IMG/VR virus record: IMGVR_UViG_3300036762_000065
Span: 1 to 64,000 of that record
Reading direction: 5' to 3' (one strand)
DNA: 64,000 nt
Origin: a virus
Lineage: Duplodnaviria; Caudoviricetes
Shown here: positions 5,181 through 59,912 of the stretch, piece after piece
How the letters are laid out: each line of letters starts with the position of its first letter
Position numbering within the stretch: position 1 is the first letter of the stretch
Translations under genes and position numbers: made by a program
Notes under the pieces: generated by a model
Told to the model about the DNA's origin: nothing
The model's input: the letters and a program-made list of their open reading frames with translations, nothing else
Database searches by the model: none

Positions 5181-5750
5181 TTACAGTTTTGGACTCTCCA
5201 AAAAGTGGTTCAAGAAAGATTGTTCTCTTTTGTATGTATTAACATTGGCAAAATAAGGCAGATTGTATAAGGCGCACAGTCTATATATACCCATAAGACT
5301 ACAATCAAGCTCATGAACTTGTTTTGGTCTTAGGCTTTTTTTAGTAGAAGCCATTGCGTCTTTTAAATCGTTATAAAGATCATTTAGGTCTAAACTGCTA
5401 TTGTACCTATTTTTCCACGTAGAGGCAGTTAAAAAAGTAACGTCCAAATCATTAAACTCGTTTAGCAGTATTCCCAACATTAGGTTTATACACTCAACAG
5501 TTTTACCTTTTATTCCTCTTGTTTGATACCTCTCTGCAACAATGTGTGTAAAATTATACTTGTTGTGGAGTTCTACTATCTCATTACAGAATGCGTTGGC
5601 TTGTTCTTGTGCCTTTAGAACGTTATTGATAGTGCTTATCATCTTAGTGCCGACGACATTAACAACCAACTTTCCGTCAATCACTTTAGCACGTAGTATA
5701 GAGGCTGCAAAATTAACAGAGCCTGGGTCTAAAGAAAGTATTGTTATCAC
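5181..5750 (-). CDS. RuvC-like Holliday junction resolvase
   Basis: LSLDPGSVN, AERYQ, TWK and HELDC motifs of the RNase H fold. Confidence 0.8.
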   Translation of the reverse strand: MITILSLDPGSVNFAASILRAKVIDGKLVVNVVGTKMISTINNVLKAQEQANAFCNEIVELHNKYNFTHIVAERYQTRGIKGKTVECINLMLGILLNEFNDLDVTFLTASTWKNRYNSSLDLNDLYNDLKDAMASTKKSLRPKQVHELDCSLMGIYRLCALYNLPYFANVNTYKREQSFLNHFLESPKL

Positions 5751-5846
5751 TATTTTTGCCTTTAATTACTGTGTAAAAATAAATTAGAATACAGAGGTTC
5801 AATATTGCTAATTTATAATTATCTATTTACATTATCAGGAATAGTT

Positions 5847-6974
5847 ATGAGTAGAGTAACGAGAGGACCTGCGACTATTAAGAGGACTCATGCCAAAAAC
5901 TACATACAGAGAGAAGCCCAAAAGCGGCTGAACGAAACTGTGGCCCCTTTTAATACACAAACACACAACGCACTGGCTGTAAATGCGGTCGAAGTAGACT
6001 TGTATCAAATACAAGACAGGACAGGATACCCTTGTTCTTGTGAAAAAACAGAACACTTGCCCCAATACGAAAACATACCCAATTCTAACGTACCTCCTGT
6101 AGTACCTACGCAAAATAACGACAGTTCCGAAGGCGTTAAAATAAGATTGAAAGATAACGACCTATTCGGAGATAGTCGTGCAGAGCATATAATGGATGCT
6201 TTGGAATTCGATGTTAGCGGAGAAGATCATCCTTTCACATCGAATGATAAAACGTCAAAAGAGCCTGAAGGTAACGTAGATTATGAAGACGGTTTATTTC
6301 TAGGCAACAACATACAATGCGGCATATGCTATAGAGCAGGATTTCAGCCAGGCTATAAAGCGTGGGGGAAACAACGCCATGTACTTACTCACAAAGATAT
6401 AGAAACCGCTGTTGATTATTGGGTGGACACAACAAAATCACCGCACATCATACGTAAACAAGTACAAACAACGAAACCCTTTGTTGAATTTAAAATAATG
6501 GTACCTAAGTACTTCTCTCATTTAGTGTTTAGTGTTAGAAACAATGAGAAGCTTATCCAAGGGGAAAAGCTCTATGATGAATTTAACGAACAATTAACTC
6601 TAGGCCATTTTAAGACACATGCAGGTCAAGTTATAACAGTGCGAACACGCGCTAAAGAATTCACACATGTGGTAGTAGAATTTGACTTAGGCAACCAAAA
6701 ACTGGTTGCTAATATAGGAGGAGAATCGCAAACACTGGATTACAGTATGTTGGAAACAATAGGCAACATGTCCGTAGTGTTGCCTCCTTCTGTAAACGAG
6801 ATTAAATCTAATGACGTACTTATTATAAAGAAAAGGAGACTCGCATTAAAAATAATCGACAAGGAGCGTAAGATAACTAGCGACCAACGTAGATTAGAGT
6901 GGATGGTTCAAACTAGAGTACTTCAACCTACCGAAGCATTAAAATACATAGCCGAAGGGTTTAAATTGTTATAA
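5847..6974 (+). CDS. Probable virion neck/head-completion protein
   Basis: ATG at 5847 with AGGA SD; CSC...CGICYRAGFQPGY motif seen in myovirus head-closure proteins; weak functional call. Confidence 0.45.
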   Translation: MSRVTRGPATIKRTHAKNYIQREAQKRLNETVAPFNTQTHNALAVNAVEVDLYQIQDRTGYPCSCEKTEHLPQYENIPNSNVPPVVPTQNNDSSEGVKIRLKDNDLFGDSRAEHIMDALEFDVSGEDHPFTSNDKTSKEPEGNVDYEDGLFLGNNIQCGICYRAGFQPGYKAWGKQRHVLTHKDIETAVDYWVDTTKSPHIIRKQVQTTKPFVEFKIMVPKYFSHLVFSVRNNEKLIQGEKLYDEFNEQLTLGHFKTHAGQVITVRTRAKEFTHVVVEFDLGNQKLVANIGGESQTLDYSMLETIGNMSVVLPPSVNEIKSNDVLIIKKRRLALKIIDKERKITSDQRRLEWMVQTRVLQPTEALKYIAEGFKLL

Positions 6975-9614: not shown

Positions 9615-11912
9615 ATGTCTAAATTAATAGAGTACAATAGCACTGAAATAAAAGCAGGTACTGGTGTTGCACGTAATCATTGTGCAATAGCAGAGCCTCT
9701 TGTTGGCGGGAAGTCTTTAGTTCCTTCAATGGAGCGTATTAACAAAAAGAAAAAAGACTTCACTGCAATGAGTTTTTTTGCAGGCTGCGGTGGTGCGTCT
9801 ATCGGAATGAAGATGGCAGGCTTTAATGTATTATACGCGAACGAGTTTATTCCTGCTGCGCAAGATACGTATAGACTAAATCATCCAGATACACTACTCG
9901 ATCCTCGTGATATACGAAAAGTGTGTCCTAAGAAACTGTTGAAAAAGCTTGGACTTAAGCGTGGAGAATTAGACCATCTCGATTTAAGTCCTCCTTGTTT
10001 TGCACCAGGTACAATGATACACACAAATCATGGATTTAAACGCATAGAAGATGTTGTTATAGGAGATAATGTTCTTACTCATACACAGGAGTTTCATCCT
10101 GTGTATGATACAATGGTTCGTAACTACTCAGGCCGCATGTATCGTCTAAAAACTATGGGCTCTATGACAACAGAGGTTACACCAGAGCACCCTTACTATG
10201 TGCGAAGAAAGAAAGGTATAAATAAATACTCATTAGATAAACCTATATGGGTAGAAGCGCAAAATCTACAGAGAGGTGATTATGTTGGTATAGCTGTAAA
10301 TCAGCTAAATGATAACAATCCTTGGTGTGGATTCTCAGACATACGAGAAAAAAGACCAGAACTTCGTGCATATAGATACAAATGGAAAAGTACTCACGTT
10401 GTATATAGGGAGTTAAATGCTTTGCCTATACATCTTAACGATTTTTGGTGGGTAGTAGGCAGATTTGTCGGAGATGGTTGGATAACACATAAAGATCAAC
10501 CAGAACATAGAAATCCAAGGAAACGTGTTAAGAGATTCGTTCGTATTTGTTGCGATAAAACAGACGGTGGAGTAGAACTTCGCGCTATAACAAGTCGATT
10601 GGACGCTTGTAATTTCTCCTATAAAATTTTGGAACGTAGAACGGCATATAGAATCTCTTTATTGAAATCCAGAGAGCTATGTGAATTTCTTTTGCAATTT
10701 GGACAAGGCGCTAAGAATAAGAGAATTCCAGGTTCAGTCCTCTCTATGCCTAAGAGTCTGCTATTGCGATTTATACAAGGTTATATATCTGCTGATGGTA
10801 GTCGACGTGGGTACGGTAAATTCAGATTCAATACTGTCAGTAGGGAATTAGCTATAGGCATAGTACACTGCATCAATAAAGTTTTTGGAAAATCTAGTGG
10901 GAAGATAGGATGTATATCGTCTGAAAAATTGATCAAATATGGATGCGGTGTAATAGAAGGTAGAAAAGTAAACGTATCCGATCGTTACGGTGCTTCATTT
11001 AACTTATTCTCCGATCCAGCGCGCGAACAGTTTATACAAGAAGAGGCTAATGGCATAATATGGGTTCCAGTACGCTCTATTGAGGAATTTCAATATAAAG
11101 GACGTGTATACAATATGTCTGTTGAGAACGATGAAACATACACGGCAAACAATTTAATTGTTCATAACTGTAAAGGCTTTTCTACAGCAGGTGTGCAAGA
11201 AGACGGTTGGAATAAAGAAGTAATGTATTCTGATGGTGTTTATCAACGAGTAGATGATTTGTTTGGTGAAGGCGTCAGGATGTTGATAGGACTAAAACCA
11301 AAAACGTTTCTTGCTGAAAATGTTGCTGGCCTTATCAAAGGTAGTTCGCGCGGTATGTTTATCGAAACACTTAACGATTTTAAAGCATGTGGCTATCGCG
11401 TTAAAGCAGCATTGATCGACCCTGTTGTGTTAGGAGCTCCACAGACGCGGGAGCGTATGATATTTATAGGAGTACGTAATGATCTAAAGATGGACCCTGT
11501 ATTTCCTACGTTGAAAAAACGCACTCCTGTTCGTGTTACTGATGTACTTCCGCATATACGTCTGATAAAAACAAAAGTTCGCAATATGCTAACATATGTT
11601 CCTGCAACAAGACCCAGCCCTACAATAGTAGCCTCAGATTTTGATACAGGGGAGAACGCTAGTTTTTCTTGTGGAGGTTGGTGCGAAGACGACCTAGGAC
11701 GTAGACGTAAATACAATCTATCTGAATTACGCAGATTGATGTGCTTTCCAGACGACTTCAAACTTAGCGGTACCCCTCGCCAACAGTGGGAAAGACTAGG
11801 TAGAAGTCATTTACCTCTTCAAGTATACCACTTAACAAAAGCTGTCCGCACAAACATACTAGAAGTTTACTACGACAGCAAAGGCGCGGATTATTCAGAC
11901 ACAATTAAATGA
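9615..11912 (+). CDS. DNA cytosine-C5 methyltransferase-family enzyme (probable carboxymethyltransferase), intein-containing
   Basis: Motif I FFAGCGG, IV PP|CKGFS, VI ENV, VIII QTRER, IX ELRRLMCFPDDF, and X LGRS in place of the usual GNS/GNA. Confidence 0.93.
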   Translation: MSKLIEYNSTEIKAGTGVARNHCAIAEPLVGGKSLVPSMERINKKKKDFTAMSFFAGCGGASIGMKMAGFNVLYANEFIPAAQDTYRLNHPDTLLDPRDIRKVCPKKLLKKLGLKRGELDHLDLSPPCFAPGTMIHTNHGFKRIEDVVIGDNVLTHTQEFHPVYDTMVRNYSGRMYRLKTMGSMTTEVTPEHPYYVRRKKGINKYSLDKPIWVEAQNLQRGDYVGIAVNQLNDNNPWCGFSDIREKRPELRAYRYKWKSTHVVYRELNALPIHLNDFWWVVGRFVGDGWITHKDQPEHRNPRKRVKRFVRICCDKTDGGVELRAITSRLDACNFSYKILERRTAYRISLLKSRELCEFLLQFGQGAKNKRIPGSVLSMPKSLLLRFIQGYISADGSRRGYGKFRFNTVSRELAIGIVHCINKVFGKSSGKIGCISSEKLIKYGCGVIEGRKVNVSDRYGASFNLFSDPAREQFIQEEANGIIWVPVRSIEEFQYKGRVYNMSVENDETYTANNLIVHNCKGFSTAGVQEDGWNKEVMYSDGVYQRVDDLFGEGVRMLIGLKPKTFLAENVAGLIKGSSRGMFIETLNDFKACGYRVKAALIDPVVLGAPQTRERMIFIGVRNDLKMDPVFPTLKKRTPVRVTDVLPHIRLIKTKVRNMLTYVPATRPSPTIVASDFDTGENASFSCGGWCEDDLGRRRKYNLSELRRLMCFPDDFKLSGTPRQQWERLGRSHLPLQVYHLTKAVRTNILEVYYDSKGADYSDTIK
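9996..11168 (+). mobile_element. Intein (391 aa) with LAGLIDADG homing endonuclease
   Basis: Begins CFAPGT; block B TPEHP; GRFVGDG and GYISADG LAGLIDADG motifs; ends VYNMSV...VHN|C. Confidence 0.95.
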
Positions 11913-54017: not shown

Positions 54018-54338
54018 ATGAGTAATGAAAATCGTGTTGATGTGCAGTATTTAAAAGAAACTACAATAATTGAGCCTTATCCTCAAACGCTACTACGTAC
54101 TGTTGATGGTATTATATGTGTAACCAACACCGAACATTCTGTCCGCATCTATATAAATACAAGCCAAAATATAAATGATGCGGAATTGCTTGTAGAGGTA
54201 TTACAGAATAGAGTAGTTGCAACTCGTATCAACGGATTTGTTTCAACCTGTACTATTTACGAACAAGGTACACATGTTTGTGTTGAGTATGGCGAGGAGC
54301 AAACTTGTATTTTAGTACCTACAAATTACTGGAAATAA
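54018..54338 (+). CDS. Hypothetical protein
   Basis: 106 aa with GGAG SD. Confidence 0.7.
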   Translation: MSNENRVDVQYLKETTIIEPYPQTLLRTVDGIICVTNTEHSVRIYINTSQNINDAELLVEVLQNRVVATRINGFVSTCTIYEQGTHVCVEYGEEQTCILVPTNYWK

Positions 54339-54342
54339 AACA

Positions 54343-55020
54343 ATGACTGTAAAAATTAAAAATAAAATTGTAAGTCAGAGAGTGGTGGTCGAGGAAGATC
54401 AAGCGCCGTCTAATGTTGTCGAATTTAATCCTATTGTCATGCACGAAGGAATAGTACGTCCTGATTTACTTCTCGGCACAACGTATAAGATTAAACCTCC
54501 TGAGCACATATCTCCTCATGCTATGTATGTTACAATAAATGATATGTTGTTGAATGAAGGTACGGATCACGAGAGGCTTGTTCCGTATGAGATTTTCATA
54601 AACAGTAAAGCCATGAATCACTTTCAATGGATTATAGCCCTCACTCGCGTTATAAGTTCCGTGTTTCGTAAAGGTGGTGACGTTACGTTCTTGATAGGTG
54701 AGCTAGGTTCTGTGTATGATCCTAATGGAGGGTATATGAAAAAAGGCGGTATCTTGATGCCTTCGCTCGTAGCAGAACTCGGAGGCGTTATTAAAAAGCA
54801 CATGAAACGTTTAGGGCTTGTCGAAGATGAGGAACTTAGCGAACACACTAAGAAAATTCTTGCTGAAAAGCGCGCCGCTTTCGATAAGCAAAATGCTAAC
54901 GCTACAGATAGTGATTATCCTGCCAACGCAACCGTGTGTAACAAGTGTAACGTTAAAGCAATGATACGCATGGACAATTGCGATACTTGCTTAGAGTGCG
55001 GAAACAGTAAGTGTGGCTAG
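54343..55020 (+). CDS. NrdJb-like / TSCPD-domain ribonucleotide reductase C-terminal subunit
   Basis: GTTYKIK, YVTIND, PYEIFINSK, ALTRVISSVFRKGG, PSLVAE; terminal CNKC...CLECGNSKCG. Confidence 0.85.
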   Translation: MTVKIKNKIVSQRVVVEEDQAPSNVVEFNPIVMHEGIVRPDLLLGTTYKIKPPEHISPHAMYVTINDMLLNEGTDHERLVPYEIFINSKAMNHFQWIIALTRVISSVFRKGGDVTFLIGELGSVYDPNGGYMKKGGILMPSLVAELGGVIKKHMKRLGLVEDEELSEHTKKILAEKRAAFDKQNANATDSDYPANATVCNKCNVKAMIRMDNCDTCLECGNSKCG

Positions 55021-55056
55021 TAAACAAACATACCTTGTGCTTCCACGGAGCCTAGA

Positions 55057-56097
55057 ATGTACGACGACAGTACTATTATACTAAGGGATAAGATATATAT
55101 TCCTGCTCTTACACTGGACGAATCTCTGGTAGAGAAGAAATATATCCATTATATTTATGACCATAAGACTTGCGCCAGATGTGAGAACAAACCGGAGAGA
55201 CATAATTATATTTGCGATCAATGTCCAGCGTTTAAAGGACGTGTATCTACGTGCAATAGGGTCGTCAAAAACGATGTTGATTATGTGGGTGTGCCGATAG
55301 GTGATAGGCTTATTGTCGAAAAGAAACTCGGTATAGATTTAGATGACTATACTGTGGTTGATAAGAGGGTTAAGGCAAAGTTTAGATATCCTGTAAAGAT
55401 GGTTAAGTCGTTTAAGCTTAGAGACTATCAAGAGAAAGCTGTTAATGAGTGGTGGGAGTATAAACACGGTCTTATAGTAGCACCTCCTAGAAGCGGTAAG
55501 ACACCAACTATGCTTGCCATGGCAGTTGAATTAGGATATAGAACTATACTGCTTGCACACCAGCATGATTTCTTAACTCAATTCATAGATCACATAGAAC
55601 AGTATACGAACTTGCCTGCATTGTCTGAGAAAGCCGGTAAGAAGTTGTACGGCTTTCCTAAAAAACTAAGTGACTTCGATGATTTTGAAATATGCGTGTG
55701 TACGTACCAGCAATTCATTACAGAAAATACAGGAGTTAAGAGGTTTAAAGCAGCTAGTCCGAACTTCGGTACCCTTCTTGTTGATGAGTGTTTTGTTTAT
55801 GATACTTTGGTCGTTGTAGACTTTGAAGGTCGGACTGAAAAAATTGGAGATATTGTAGAGCATGGCGTTGCTAACGAGGTAGTTAGTTATAACCACGAAT
55901 CCGAGTCGTTTGAACTAAAGCCTATAGAAAGTTGTACGAAGAAAGAGGCTGAAGAATTATACGATGTTGAATATGAAGGCGGCTCTTTTCGATGTACTGG
56001 CAATCACGAGTTTTGGTGTGTTAATAGAAATTCGTATGTGGCTGTAAAAGACTTGTCTGAGGACGACGAGCTTTTATTAGGGCCGCGCGAGGAATAA
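55057..56097 (+). CDS. SF2 (UvsW/XPB-like) helicase N-terminal half fused to N-intein
   Basis: LRDYQ, APPRSGKT, LLVDE|CFVYDT; intein block B CTGNHEF. Confidence 0.9.
   Translation: MYDDSTIILRDKIYIPALTLDESLVEKKYIHYIYDHKTCARCENKPERHNYICDQCPAFKGRVSTCNRVVKNDVDYVGVPIGDRLIVEKKLGIDLDDYTVVDKRVKAKFRYPVKMVKSFKLRDYQEKAVNEWWEYKHGLIVAPPRSGKTPTMLAMAVELGYRTILLAHQHDFLTQFIDHIEQYTNLPALSEKAGKKLYGFPKKLSDFDDFEICVCTYQQFITENTGVKRFKAASPNFGTLLVDECFVYDTLVVVDFEGRTEKIGDIVEHGVANEVVSYNHESESFELKPIESCTKKEAEELYDVEYEGGSFRCTGNHEFWCVNRNSYVAVKDLSEDDELLLGPREE
55789..56094 (+). mobile_element. Split intein N-fragment (102 aa)
   Basis: Starts CFVYDTLV after DE; TGNH block B; acidic end DLSEDDELL, then stop. Confidence 0.9.
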
Positions 56098-56103
56098 ATT
56101 AAA

Positions 56104-57699
56104 ATGCAAGCTCACGTTAAACATTTGGCTAATAACATTACACCTATTGTATTAGAACCGGGTCAAACATGGAAAAATAAATCTACTATATATTCATACA
56201 GATGTACAAAACATAATAGTGTCGGACTCGTTGCAGGTAGACGTGCGTTACGCACAGGGACGAAAGCATTTTGTGAAGACTGCGTATTTGAAGATCGTCC
56301 TAAACATACTAAGTGGTTGAATAGGTTGAGAGCAGGACTAGACACTAAAGGAAAAAAGTCTGGAAAATATATATGTACGGAACACCTTATTGAAAATGTA
56401 AAACCTGTTAAACATATTTATCAATACGGAACATTAACGTTCTGCCGCGAGTGTGAAGAAGAGAATATAGAGAATATTGTAAATCGTAAATTAGAAGCGC
56501 ACACTGATAGGGTACTTAATAAATACCCGCACATTAAAGTAAAACGTAACCAAAAGTTTGATGGCCGTAATAGCATTATATATAAATGCACCACTCATGG
56601 AATTGTAGGTTATGCTAAGCCTAATTACGCATTAACTCATGGTTCGTATTCGTTTTGTTCAGCATGTAAAGAAGAATACTCTAACAGACCTGATAAACCT
56701 ACTAGAAAGAAAAGAAAGAAAGTAAGCATACCGGACTTGCATAATGTTATTTTGAAAAGGGAAAAGTTGGATGAAACCGACTTAGAGCGCATTAGGTTAT
56801 GTGCCAACAAAAACTGTCTTTGTATTAGATACCAATTTCTAAACAATTTAGCAAGGCTTTCGAAGAAAACGACTAAACGTTTTATGTTGTTCGAAGCTAA
56901 ACATAATTACGGAATTAAAAAGACTATTGCATTAGCCTTAGGTGAGTTAGATTTTAAGTATTGCGAAGTATGTAAATCTGACATAACAAATAAAAAGAAG
57001 TCTTTGTTATTCTGTAGCCGTCATTGCGCACACAATTCAAAACAGATAAAAGATAAAAAGAAACAGACCACTTTTAGTAGATATGGTGTATTATGTCCTA
57101 CTAAAAACCCTGTTATATATAAAAAGATGATAGAAAATAATATTCGTAAATACGGAGTAGAGAATCCAGCACATTTAGACTCTGTTCGAGACAAGGCTAG
57201 GAAAACTAATATGGAACGTTATGGCGTTCCTAATCAGATGCAGAACGCAAATGTGTTTGAAAAAATGCAGAGAACTAGCTACGCTAGAAAACGCATTACT
57301 ATTAAAGGCATTGATTTTGACGTACAAGGTTACGAAGGATTTGCTATAAAAGGTATTGTATGTGCTGGCGTTGATCCAAAAGATATTTTATGCGGTGTAA
57401 GTGACGTGCCTCATATACAATACAAACGTAAAGGTATATATAGAGTGTATTTTCCGGATCTTTTTTTACCAAAAACTAATCATTTGGTTGAAGTAAAATC
57501 AACACATACGTTCGGACTATCAGAGTCATCTTACGCAAAAAATTGGTTTGTTACAACAAAACAAAAAGCAAAAGCTGCAATATCGTGTGGATACAAGTTT
57601 TCACTTGTACTTTTACGTGCTGATGGTACTAGAATAAAGTTACCTAAAGATTGGTATAAAATGAAACATGCTCGTATTATTTCTCTAGGACTATCTTAA
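56104..57699 (+). CDS. Free-standing putative homing endonuclease (Zn-binding repeats + YG repeats + PD-(D/E)XK domain)
   Basis: Three CxxH...FCxxC units; RYGV/KYGV repeats; YFPDLF...VEVKS; sits between the two intein halves. Confidence 0.78.
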   Translation: MQAHVKHLANNITPIVLEPGQTWKNKSTIYSYRCTKHNSVGLVAGRRALRTGTKAFCEDCVFEDRPKHTKWLNRLRAGLDTKGKKSGKYICTEHLIENVKPVKHIYQYGTLTFCRECEEENIENIVNRKLEAHTDRVLNKYPHIKVKRNQKFDGRNSIIYKCTTHGIVGYAKPNYALTHGSYSFCSACKEEYSNRPDKPTRKKRKKVSIPDLHNVILKREKLDETDLERIRLCANKNCLCIRYQFLNNLARLSKKTTKRFMLFEAKHNYGIKKTIALALGELDFKYCEVCKSDITNKKKSLLFCSRHCAHNSKQIKDKKKQTTFSRYGVLCPTKNPVIYKKMIENNIRKYGVENPAHLDSVRDKARKTNMERYGVPNQMQNANVFEKMQRTSYARKRITIKGIDFDVQGYEGFAIKGIVCAGVDPKDILCGVSDVPHIQYKRKGIYRVYFPDLFLPKTNHLVEVKSTHTFGLSESSYAKNWFVTTKQKAKAAISCGYKFSLVLLRADGTRIKLPKDWYKMKHARIISLGLS

Positions 57700-57700
57700 T

Positions 57701-57835
57701 ATGAATACAGTCAAAGTAAAATCAATAAAACGGGTGCAACTTGAGCAAGGGCATCCTGTATACGATATAGGCGTATCAGACAATCATAACTATCTAGTTT
57801 CATCCGATGGTGAGTGTTCCGTACTAACACATAAT
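57701..57835 (+). mobile_element. Split intein C-fragment (45 aa)
   Basis: Blocks F and G ending HN, followed by +1 Cys. Confidence 0.9.
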
Positions 57836-58831
57836 TGCCATAAAGCGAATAGTAATACTTTCGCACAAGTTGTTTCTAAGTGGCCTTCTCGTATTAAGCT
57901 AGGCGTTACTGCCACAGAAAAAAGAAAAGATCAACGCGAGTTCTTGATAAAAGAGTTGGTCGGACCTGTTGTGTCTAGGGTTGAAATACCACAGTTGCAG
58001 GCTAGAGTCATATTACATGATATGGATTATGTTAAACCAAAATCTGCTTATAAAGGACCTGCTGGTTTTGTCTATGCTACTAAGTTTTTGTCTAAGCACG
58101 AAAAACGCAATAACACCATCTTAGAGTATGTGCTTAAAGATATTGCCAAAGGTCATTGTATTATAATACCTACACACTTTAGGGAGCATGTATCGTTTCT
58201 TGTTGCTGCAATAAACGAATTAGCAGGACATAAAATAGCAGAAGAATTTGTAGGCGGTTCTGGTAAGAAGAATAAAGAGCATAGAGAAGGCGTTTTAGAA
58301 CGTGCTAAATCAAGGAAGACTCGTGTTGTTGTAGGAATAAGAAGCTTGTTGCAGCTAGGACTAAACGTCCCTGCATGGAGTGCATTGTATTATATAATGC
58401 CGATGTCAAACGAGCCCAACTGGAAGCAAGAGTCTAGTCGTATACTAACACCTGACGACAGCGGCCTAAAGCGAACTCCTATAATTAGGATGTTTGTCGA
58501 TAAGCACATGGGGCTTTCGTTAGGGTGCTGGTCTAACACATACAAACAAAGCTTGAAGTTTAAACATGTGCCTACAGAAGGTGCTCGCAAACTAGCTCAC
58601 GACTTCTTTGAAATACAAGGAAGCAATACTAGAGGTAGCTACAACGAAAGCGATCCTTACGCAGAGTCTTCTAGTCCTGTACGTGCTAAAAAAGCAAAAC
58701 ATAATGCAGACGATCCTTATTCAGGAGAAGCCGTAGCTACAATGAAACACGGTAAGACACCTCGTGAACGTCACAAGTCTTTAAAAGACAGAGCGAGTAA
58801 AAATGCACCTTCCGGTTTATTTAATAGGTGA
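57701..58831 (+). CDS. C-intein fused to SF2 helicase C-terminal half
   Basis: MNTVKVKSIKR...VYDIGV..NHNY...THN|CH; TAT motif III, LGLNVP, QESSRILT. Confidence 0.9.
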   Translation: MNTVKVKSIKRVQLEQGHPVYDIGVSDNHNYLVSSDGECSVLTHNCHKANSNTFAQVVSKWPSRIKLGVTATEKRKDQREFLIKELVGPVVSRVEIPQLQARVILHDMDYVKPKSAYKGPAGFVYATKFLSKHEKRNNTILEYVLKDIAKGHCIIIPTHFREHVSFLVAAINELAGHKIAEEFVGGSGKKNKEHREGVLERAKSRKTRVVVGIRSLLQLGLNVPAWSALYYIMPMSNEPNWKQESSRILTPDDSGLKRTPIIRMFVDKHMGLSLGCWSNTYKQSLKFKHVPTEGARKLAHDFFEIQGSNTRGSYNESDPYAESSSPVRAKKAKHNADDPYSGEAVATMKHGKTPRERHKSLKDRASKNAPSGLFNR

Positions 58832-58848
58832 ACTCTAGGAGAGTATAC

Positions 58849-59445
58849 ATGTCCAGTTACATATTAAACATAATAGGTTCTGATGACGATCTTCAATTGT
58901 CTGTACCTATAAAAACACCTTCTAATGTCGCAGAGTGGTTGTACACTATAAAGCAAGATATGGAAGTTGATGTACATCTTTCTGTGACAAAGAACAACGT
59001 TAAGGGTATATCGTTTAGTGAACTTATATCTTTCTTTGTGTCTTGGAGTGACTCCTACGTAAAACATTCAGAAACAAATAAAAAGTTTGAAATTCAAATA
59101 GTCAACTCCGATACGAACCAAGTACGTATGATTGCGGAATCAATGTGTGTGTCTTTTGACAAGTCAGAGAAGCTTGTATCCTTGTATTTAACTAGCTGTA
59201 AGTTGGGCGCAAATGCTAATGTCGTATACCTCGACGGAAGCGAGTATTTATCTGTACCTACTTTGCTAGAAGAGGCTTCAGAGGCAACGGCAGTCATTAT
59301 AATAATGCAAGAACGTAGCGGTCGAATCACCCATTCTGTTTCTGAAGGTTGGAAAAAAGAAACATTGACATATGCGTTTAGGAAGACTAACCGGCATATT
59401 GAAGATACTTTGTTTGACAATGACCTGTACGATTTTGAGGATTAA
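58849..59445 (+). CDS. Hypothetical protein
   Basis: ATG 58849 with AGGAG SD. Confidence 0.75.
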   Translation: MSSYILNIIGSDDDLQLSVPIKTPSNVAEWLYTIKQDMEVDVHLSVTKNNVKGISFSELISFFVSWSDSYVKHSETNKKFEIQIVNSDTNQVRMIAESMCVSFDKSEKLVSLYLTSCKLGANANVVYLDGSEYLSVPTLLEEASEATAVIIIMQERSGRITHSVSEGWKKETLTYAFRKTNRHIEDTLFDNDLYDFED

Positions 59446-59447
59446 GC

Positions 59448-59912
59448 GTGAAGTACTTACATGTGACACTCGGCTTAGAAGATTCGGAAAAGATAGACTA
59501 CGATGCTGCTTTAAAGTTTTTCGTAGATCAAGGCCTTACTGTAACATCAAAAAGAAACTCTATAACGTGTTGCTTGGTGTTTATCATAGAGTTACAGGAT
59601 AAGAAAATACAAAAATTATTCACTAATGTCGATCTAATGTTGGTAGACAGTGAAACACAAAGCATGGTGTCCTATAAATTAGACCCTGCTGTAGAACTGC
59701 ATGACTTGCCTACGAAATTTCCAAAACAGAAATCTTTATCTAATTTCTGTAAGAATGATGAATACGGTACCCACTCTAATTTTGAATATAATTCAGGAAT
59801 AGACGCTACGGTAACTTTAAACTTACCGGACGGTCCTTTAGACGTACCTTTAAACGACTTCGTTATACTAATTGCAAGTAAGATTAGAGACTTAGAAAAC
59901 GGTATAGTGTAA
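59448..59912 (+). CDS. Hypothetical protein
   Basis: GTG start with GAGG SD. Confidence 0.7.
   Translation: MKYLHVTLGLEDSEKIDYDAALKFFVDQGLTVTSKRNSITCCLVFIIELQDKKIQKLFTNVDLMLVDSETQSMVSYKLDPAVELHDLPTKFPKQKSLSNFCKNDEYGTHSNFEYNSGIDATVTLNLPDGPLDVPLNDFVILIASKIRDLENGIV

Follow-up and report, generated by a model that had tools for sequence, protein, structure and literature searches.

The gene of a repair-type helicase in an uncultured jumbo phage from wastewater (~242 kb) is interrupted by a cassette that very probably makes it a fractured gene. This mobile element is composed of the N-terminal half of an intein (IntN), a free-standing endonuclease gene and the C-terminal half of the intein (IntC), and the intein halves are predicted to leave the helicase by protein splicing in trans. 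The gene occupies positions 55057-58831 of the stretch of DNA analysed, hereafter called the window, which is the first 64 kb (64,000 nucleotides) of the 241,706-base-pair (bp) IMG/VR virus record IMGVR_UViG_3300036762_000065; the record carries direct terminal repeats and is rated 100% complete. To judge by its motifs, the host protein is an XPB/Rad25-UvsW-like superfamily 2 (SF2) helicase of the PaBG/Lu11-like jumbo phages, with motifs I, II (DExH) and III and the C-terminal RecA-like domain all present. The catalytic residues of the intein are conserved among relatives, the two helicase parts that flank the intein halves (the exteins) are colinear with uninterrupted homologues, and in a sister phage the cassette is exactly replaced by another one.

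The locus consists of three co-directional and closely packed open reading frames (ORFs) on the + strand. The ORFs, junctions and lengths that had been listed in a preliminary description, made from the DNA letters without database searches, were all recovered, and they are given here together with the features that they contain (aa, amino acids; nt, nucleotides):

55057-56097, +: ORF1, 346 aa; helicase residues 1-244 ending in GTLLVDE, then the 102-aa IntN and a TAA stop
55057-55788, +: N-extein, residues 1-244, with an N-terminal four-Cys zinc finger, the Walker A motif APPRSGKT and the first two motif II residues (LLVDE)
55789-56094, +: IntN, 102 aa (followed by the TAA stop at 56095-56097), with Cys1-Phe, the TxxH block in CTGNHEF and the end DDELLLGPREE
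56089-56093, +: putative Shine-Dalgarno-like GAGGA, read from the sequence, within the last ORF1 codons and 10 nt 5' of the ORF2 ATG
56104-57699, +: ORF2, 531-aa nuclease
~57283-57696, +: PD-(D/E)xK domain of ORF2, aa ~394-531, as placed by alignment and model
57687-57690, +: putative Shine-Dalgarno-like AGGA, read from the sequence, 10 nt 5' of the ORF3 ATG
57701-58831, +: ORF3, 376 aa; the 45-aa IntC ending in VLTHN, then CHKANSNTFA... and 331 helicase residues in all
57701-57835, +: IntC, 45 aa, starting with MNTVKVKSIKRV, with block F VYDIGVSDNHNYLV and block G VLTHN
57836-58831, +: C-extein, 331 aa, with the Cys+1-His that completes DE-C-H, motif III GVTATEKRKD and the C-terminal RecA-like domain

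The preliminary description had also claimed that splicing would rebuild the Walker B box as DECH in a 575-aa SF2 helicase. This agrees with the joined exteins, which add up to 575 aa (244 + 331) and in which the DE encoded by ORF1 and the CH encoded by ORF3 are predicted to abut. Its central claim was that the intein is naturally split and that a free-standing endonuclease gene separates its halves; this reading is the one best supported by the catalytic residues, by the colinear exteins and by the nuclease genes that lie on the opposite strand in relatives. A megablast search of the locus against GenBank phages, from which records close to the window may be missing, returned no match.

The helicase host and the intein halves

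The N-extein matches Pfam ResIII (E 2.7e-12), while the C-extein matches Helicase_C (E 5.8e-4) and PHROG 16, labelled 'DNA helicase' (E 3e-25); in Pfam and PHROGs together, ResIII/DNA helicase is seen in both exteins. Among solved structures, archaeal XPB helicases come closest (XPB-II in the PDB, E 3e-7). In an alignment of ORF1 homologues, the four cysteines C39, C42, C53 and C56 and the GKT of the Walker A motif are invariant. The helicases of Lu11, of Erwinia phages of the Yoloswag/Alexandra type and of many Erwinia and Dickeya jumbo phages are orthologs of the window exteins, as is gp210 of PaBG (KF147891), which is annotated as a 'UvsW-like ATP-dependent DNA repair helicase' and is 46-50% identical over both exteins. 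The PaBG gene also has the same neighbourhood, with a sliding-clamp-like gene and two small ORFs upstream. The genes of PaBG (531 aa), Lu11 and the Erwinia phages are, however, continuous, whereas that of the window contains a cassette of 2,047 bp.

The empty site is represented by the intein-less relative P0004, whose helicase has the same length as the joined exteins of the window. It reads LLIDEVHKANSNTF at the site, with DEVH as motif II, whereas the spliced protein of the window would read LLVDE-CHKANSNTF. When a single protein was used as the query, the locus search retrieved two distant loci only, while an alignment query retrieved a larger set. By tblastn, the match to N-extein residue 244 and the match to C-extein residue 2 lie one codon apart in more than 70 IMG/VR loci, so the two halves abut perfectly once the intein is removed. 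Most uninterrupted homologues have V or A as the variable residue of DExH, but DECH occurs in six, and a Cys is therefore tolerated at this position. One uninterrupted homologue has a Cys after the RKD of motif III. The Cys at these two positions may be left over from the precise loss of an intein, or may mark a site pre-adapted for invasion.

Both intein halves are recognized by the NCBIfam profiles of the corresponding intein regions: IntN matches TIGR01445 (intein_Nterm) with 38.4 bits at a cut-off of 24.5, and IntC matches TIGR01443 (intein_Cterm) with 26.3 bits at a cut-off of 15.6. Pfam Intein_splicing also matches both halves, below its cut-off. The nearest solved intein to IntN is the NrdJ-1 split intein (8ubs, E 1.4e-4). 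IntN begins with Cys-Phe-Val-Tyr-Asp-Thr, and the set of splicing residues is complete, with Cys1, TxxH (in CTGNHEF), His-Asn and Cys+1; C245, F246, T314 and H317 of ORF1 are nearly invariant among its homologues. Although intein identity is only ~40-70%, Cys1, TxxH, HN and Cys+1 are kept in 13 allelic N-halves (DE^C, with the caret marking the junction) and 9 C-halves (HN^CH). The halves are encoded on separate polypeptides by virtue of the TAA at 56095 and the ATG at 57701, and the positions of this stop and this start are conserved: the N-halves of the 13 relatives terminate within a few residues of a common DDELxL motif, and the C-halves share an MNTVKVKS-type N-terminus. An N region, a C region with its +1 nucleophile, separate chains and colinear exteins are thus all found, as judged by profile matches, motifs and homologues, and they place IntN and IntC among the class-1 split inteins. 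An Rfam scan of 54500-59500 at E<=1 found neither a group I or II intron nor any other RNA family, and joining of the halves by RNA splicing is therefore unsupported.

The charge complementarity known from natural split inteins, which had been claimed for this pair, holds in part. IntN is acidic, with a net charge of -16, and the first ~15 residues of IntC are basic (about +3), but IntC as a whole has a net charge of -1.

The complete set of splicing residues also bears on an alternative in which no splicing takes place and the intein halves act as a clasp, docking the helicase halves non-covalently, so that the enzyme would work as a heterodimer that retains IntN and IntC at its ATPase site. 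The Aeh1 NrdA 'genes in pieces' (PMC3045599) provide a precedent for non-covalent assembly. No residue needed for splicing is missing, however, and all are conserved between alleles whose inteins share only ~40% identity, and a Hint domain of 147 residues left within motif II (DE/CH) would occupy the site of ATP hydrolysis; we consider such a clasp very unlikely.

Split alleles in related phages and replacement of the cassette

The helicase of the window is far from being the only split member of its family. ORF1-type N-halves that end in an IntN account for 25 of the 100 best homologues, with lengths of 339-388 aa, and two positions of the split can be distinguished. Thirteen proteins, including that of the window, and Yersinia phage fHe-Yen9-02 have it at site a, the DE^C(H) position of the window. 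In 11 proteins, in Dickeya phages JA11 and JA33 and in locus L034 it follows motif III (T(A/G)T..RKD^C), at site b. Among the ORF3 homologues are the matching C-halves, with ...HN^CH for site a or ...HN^C(K/R)H for site b. P0100, a protein of similar length, has a contiguous mini-intein, not a split one, at the DE^C site of another helicase.

Two of these cases concern cultured phages, in whose GenBank records no intein is annotated. In Yersinia phage fHe-Yen9-02 (OR620964; L001:1730-4827), gp061, gp060 and gp059 contain a helicase of the same family as that of the window, split at the identical DE^CH site; gp059, gp060 and gp061 are annotated as 'hypothetical', 'hypothetical' and 'DNA helicase', respectively. 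In Dickeya phages JA11 and JA33 (MH460462 for JA33), gp156 and gp155 are the parts of a helicase of this family that is split at motif III (RKD^C), and the nuclease gene between them, of 375 aa and with a DUF7487 domain, is itself unannotated and lies on the opposite strand (L002:4045-5172, - strand, in JA33, and likewise in JA11). The DUF7487-type nuclease genes of the Yersinia and Dickeya phages (352 and 375 aa, respectively) differ from ORF2 in being shorter and in the opposite orientation, while their C-terminal domain is homologous to that of ORF2. The L034 and L062 loci also have a nuclease gene on the opposite strand.

Such opposite-strand genes exclude the idea that the arrangement is merely a broken contiguous intein or a single ORF. 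This idea, in which a bifunctional intein with a nested nuclease seems split through an assembly error, stop readthrough or a frameshift, draws on the layout of the window: ORF1 and ORF2 share one reading frame with only the TAA and two sense codons (ATT and AAA) between them, and ORF3, in the +1 frame relative to ORF2, starts 1 nt after it. The letters of 54500-59500 were, however, reproduced without difference by identical 26-kb contigs of two wastewater runs at ~30x, which may be the window's own source. ORF2 and ORF3 each have an ATG and a Shine-Dalgarno-like site of their own, and the conserved stop near DDELxL and the MNTVKVKS-type start recur in the relatives. The chance that the split is an artefact is thus the slimmest of those considered here.

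Locus L062 (L062:3222-7657, in the 260-kb contig IMGVR_UViG_3300011693_000001) encodes a related helicase with two inteins at once. The first lies in Walker A (SGK^C...SHN^T), a third intein site of this helicase, and is a full LAGLIDADG intein; the second is split at the DE^CH position of site a, with an opposite-strand Vsr-like endonuclease gene (5562-6602; FEFHGDIWHGN) between its halves.

The mobility of the cassette is most evident from the closest relative of the window. Its exteins (P0002 for the N-half and P0221 for the C-half) are 98.0% and 96.7% identical to those of the window, while IntN and IntC are only 41.8% and 39.5% identical. In P0222 the relation is reversed, with an IntC that has the same start and is 91% identical and an extein that is 69.6% identical, and across alleles the identity of the intein is decoupled from that of the extein. 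At the DNA level, contigs of activated sludge (the two runs X4 and X5, which belong to a different study from the window's wastewater runs) align to 54500-55793 with 31 differences in 1294 nt and to 57829-59500 with 74 differences in 1672 nt, and between these parts 780 other letters replace the 2,035 letters of the window (55794-57828). With the cassette at 55789-57835, the swap is exact at the intein borders. The empty allele of P0004, the swapped cassette of the sister phage and the decoupled identities together amount to polymorphism at a fixed site, the mark of a mobile element.

The differences between the window and its sister phage are themselves unevenly placed. Five of the 11 amino-acid differences between the C-exteins of the window and P0221 fall within the first 25 residues (binomial p 8e-4), and on the other side the only N-extein difference near the site, relative to P0002, is at residue 242. 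This clustering beside the junction looks like the pattern expected of a co-conversion tract.

If the X4 and X5 contigs belong to the P0002/P0221 lineage, only ~360 nt would separate the IntN stop from the IntC start in the sister phage, which is too short for such an endonuclease; this spacer, like the DNA of the empty site, is deduced from proteins and aligned contigs of sequencing runs. Such a spacer would suggest that the endonuclease gene is decaying in this lineage, and it could be taken to mean that the helicase as a whole was inactivated by the cassette and is heading to loss, with ORFs that are intact only because the event is recent. Against this, roughly one in four of the homologues retrieved is split, at either of two sites, and the halves are intact even among deeply diverged relatives. 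The N-extein of the window differs from that of the sister phage by at least 16 nucleotides but only five amino acids, which indicates purifying selection on the halves. We thus see very little room for a decaying locus, and a functional fractured gene remains the preferred reading.

The endonuclease, the proposed mechanism and known fractured genes

ORF2 matches Pfam DUF7487 (PF24308; E 1.7e-36) and PHROGs 3339 and 12131, which are both labelled 'homing endonuclease'. It is composed of N-terminal Cys-rich, zinc-ribbon-like modules, helical repeats with 'YGVxNP' and a C-terminal PD-(D/E)xK nuclease domain. In an alignment of 43 sequences, E411, D452 (in FPD), E463 and K465 (in EVK) are invariant and form a canonical PD-(D/E)xK signature. 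The AlphaFold2 (AF2) model has predicted local distance difference test (pLDDT) values mostly above 90 for residues ~320-500, while the N-terminal 300 residues are poorly modelled (pLDDT <50). The zinc-ribbon-like assignment of the N-terminal part is suggested by patterns of Cys-x2-(C/H)...Cys-x2-Cys and by matches to Pfam DUF4379 (treble-clef) in the Dickeya and L062 genes. When residues 394-531 of the model were compared with solved structures, the VIA Z scores were 9.8 for SfsA, 8.7 for TnsA, 8.2 for Vsr (1cw0) and 6.3 for I-Bth0305I (3r3p); a relative has a weak Pfam TnsA-like match. Foldseek with the ORF2 model gave only weak nuclease matches (E>=0.02), and phmmer of ORF2 against PDB sequences gave no match, including none to 3r3p and Vsr.

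Membership of ORF2 in the EDxHD/Vsr-like group, to which I-Bth0305I belongs (PMC3239194; PDB 3r3p), was considered and rejected: the invariant columns contain no conserved His, there is no sequence match, and the likeness is at the level of the fold (Z 6.3-8.2). ORF2 and I-Bth0305I/EDxHD enzymes are alike in having a restriction-endonuclease-like fold and in being free-standing inside fractured genes. They differ in that ORF2 is without the conserved His, is closest in its modelled structure to SfsA and TnsA, and has an N-terminal DNA-binding part built of zinc-ribbon modules and YGVxNP repeats. By its signature and model, ORF2 is thus assigned to the same fold superfamily as the Vsr-like/EDxHD enzymes, and not to that family. 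L062 has a true Vsr-like gene at the position equivalent to that of ORF2. The literature searched contained no paper that mentions DUF7487. Elsewhere in the same genome, outside the window, a second and short DUF7487 match lies in a 172-aa frame at 125789-126118 (- strand).

Based on these observations, we propose that the cassette at 55789-57835 was inserted in the codon after the Asp-Glu of helicase motif II. The three ORFs are probably co-transcribed: promoters and terminators are not in excess between them, Shine-Dalgarno-like sites precede ORF2 and ORF3, and the stop of ORF2 (TAA at 57697-57699) and the ATG of ORF3 are arranged as TAA-T-ATG with 1 nt between them, from which we infer a single transcript whose layout would permit translational coupling from ORF2 to ORF3. 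The acidic IntN tail of ORF1 and the IntC head of ORF3 would then pair to form a Hint fold of class 1, and trans-splicing would proceed through an N-S acyl shift at Cys1, transesterification to Cys+1, cyclisation of Asn45 and an S-N shift, and the product would be a 575-aa helicase with the Walker B sequence DECH. ORF2, with its zinc-ribbon and PD-(D/E)xK parts, may cut intein-less alleles of the DEVH type during co-infection, after which repair would copy the whole cassette and a short flanking stretch of extein by gene conversion.

Several points weigh against this proposal. Because IntC is not basic overall (net -1), electrostatic steering of the halves would be weaker than in DnaE-type split inteins. 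The shared frame of ORF1 and ORF2 might be a trace of an ancestral IntN-nuclease fusion, or might reflect readthrough that yields one. The sequencing runs that carry the stretch include no RNA run, and the promoter and terminator scans gave no excess over shuffled controls. Finally, ORF2 has no close homologue: the best are 33-36% identical, over the C-terminal ~38% (the nuclease domain) only, and all belong to PF24308, so that specificity of ORF2 for the site cannot be supported by comparison.

The preliminary description had noted that fractured genes are known from phage and metagenomic DNA, and the locus indeed matches the fractured genes described in 2009 by Dassa, London, Stoddard, Schueler-Furman and Pietrokovski (PMC2677866), among them gp41-1, NrdJ-1 and IMPDH-1, in which a free-standing homing-endonuclease gene is located between the halves. 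The layout of N-extein-IntN, endonuclease gene and IntC-C-extein is identical, with ORF2 as the free-standing homing-endonuclease gene. Also shared are the phage or metagenomic origin, a host protein of DNA metabolism and a split at the point of the Hint fold where endonucleases are canonically inserted. Inteins in the ATPase motifs of SF2 helicases are also already known (PMC4760082). The hosts named in PMC2677866 are, however, gp41, IMPDH, DnaE, NrdA, NrdJ, ligase and terminase, and an XPB/UvsW-like SF2 helicase of jumbo phages that is split in motif II is not among them. The endonuclease of the window differs as well, being a canonical E..PD..ExK enzyme (DUF7487) and neither Vsr-like nor GIY-YIG, and the window's IntC, at 45 aa, exceeds the earlier ones in length and has no net basic charge. 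The locus is therefore a further example of an element whose layout has been known since 2009, and does not represent a novel kind. The suggestion that the pair may be uncharacterised stands for this particular pair and falls for the arrangement, which is well known (PMC2677866) and common. Searches of the literature for a split intein with jumbo phage and helicase, and for fHe-Yen9-02 or JA11 with intein, found no description of such a split helicase.

Implications and other inteins of the genome

The findings leave the accepted understanding of how such elements work unchanged; what they add is comparative. With the locus and its relatives, an SF2 helicase of jumbo phages joins the known hosts of naturally split inteins, and its insertion sites at motif II and motif III are both new. 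This one helicase family combines two sites of splitting and a third site with an intein, endonucleases of two families, and sister phages whose cassettes are swapped exactly. The swap, with the adjoining tract that resembles co-conversion, captures the turnover of split inteins in nature with unusual clarity. The annotations of fHe-Yen9-02, JA11 and JA33 in GenBank could be revised. Diverged allelic pairs are candidates for orthogonal tools of protein ligation, the nearest solved relative being the fast NrdJ-1 intein, and DUF7487, as a large family, is worth testing as a nuclease of programmable specificity.

A more speculative idea, which we regard as unlikely, is that split-intein cassettes compete for the helicase locus of PaBG/Lu11-like jumbo phages. 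If the inteins of the sister phages, which are ~40% identical and sit in the same codon, were orthogonal or mutually poisoning, mixed infections would produce halves that are unsplicable or mis-paired, and the cassette, besides being a selfish element, would act as a determinant of hybrid incompatibility or superinfection competition. Should this hold, nature would provide at least two orthogonal Cys/Cys split-intein pairs, along with an uncharacterised PD-(D/E)xK (DUF7487) family of homing endonucleases.

Split inteins related to IntN extend beyond this helicase. A phmmer search of the library with IntN alone retrieved 390 representatives, and in 98 of the best 150 the match ends 15 residues or fewer from the C-terminus, as expected of N-halves of split inteins. 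Many of the IntN-like N-halves among the best 150 representatives (P0301-P0448) directly follow a ...VDE^ Walker B motif, and the extein contexts before the IntN-like ends vary, including VDE^C, AGE[YF]^CF[HD] and QILTKE^CF. These contexts suggest a large reservoir of naturally split inteins, spread over several host proteins and for the most part unexplored.

The genome of the window itself encodes further inteins. A C-5 cytosine DNA methyltransferase at 9615-11912 (+ strand; Pfam DNA_methylase, E 1e-35) contains a complete intein of the LAGLIDADG type at ~9993-11168, inserted at the catalytic Pro-Cys motif (DLSPP^CFAPGT ... LIVHN^CKGFS) and, unlike the intein of the helicase, contiguous. Outside the window, two more contiguous inteins are found at 203439-203738 and 217847-218758, both on the - strand; one of the two has a LAGLIDADG domain and is in an ORF of more than 1,080 aa, and the other is in an ORF of 577 aa. 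Pfam did not identify the host proteins of these two inteins.

Immediately upstream of the helicase gene, the window carries two ORFs (54018-55020, + strand) that are extra in comparison with the syntenic region of PaBG. One of them, of 106 aa, has no Pfam match, and the other encodes a 225-aa TSCPD-domain protein, resembling the C-terminus of class II ribonucleotide reductase, with a CxxC...CxxC...C tail.

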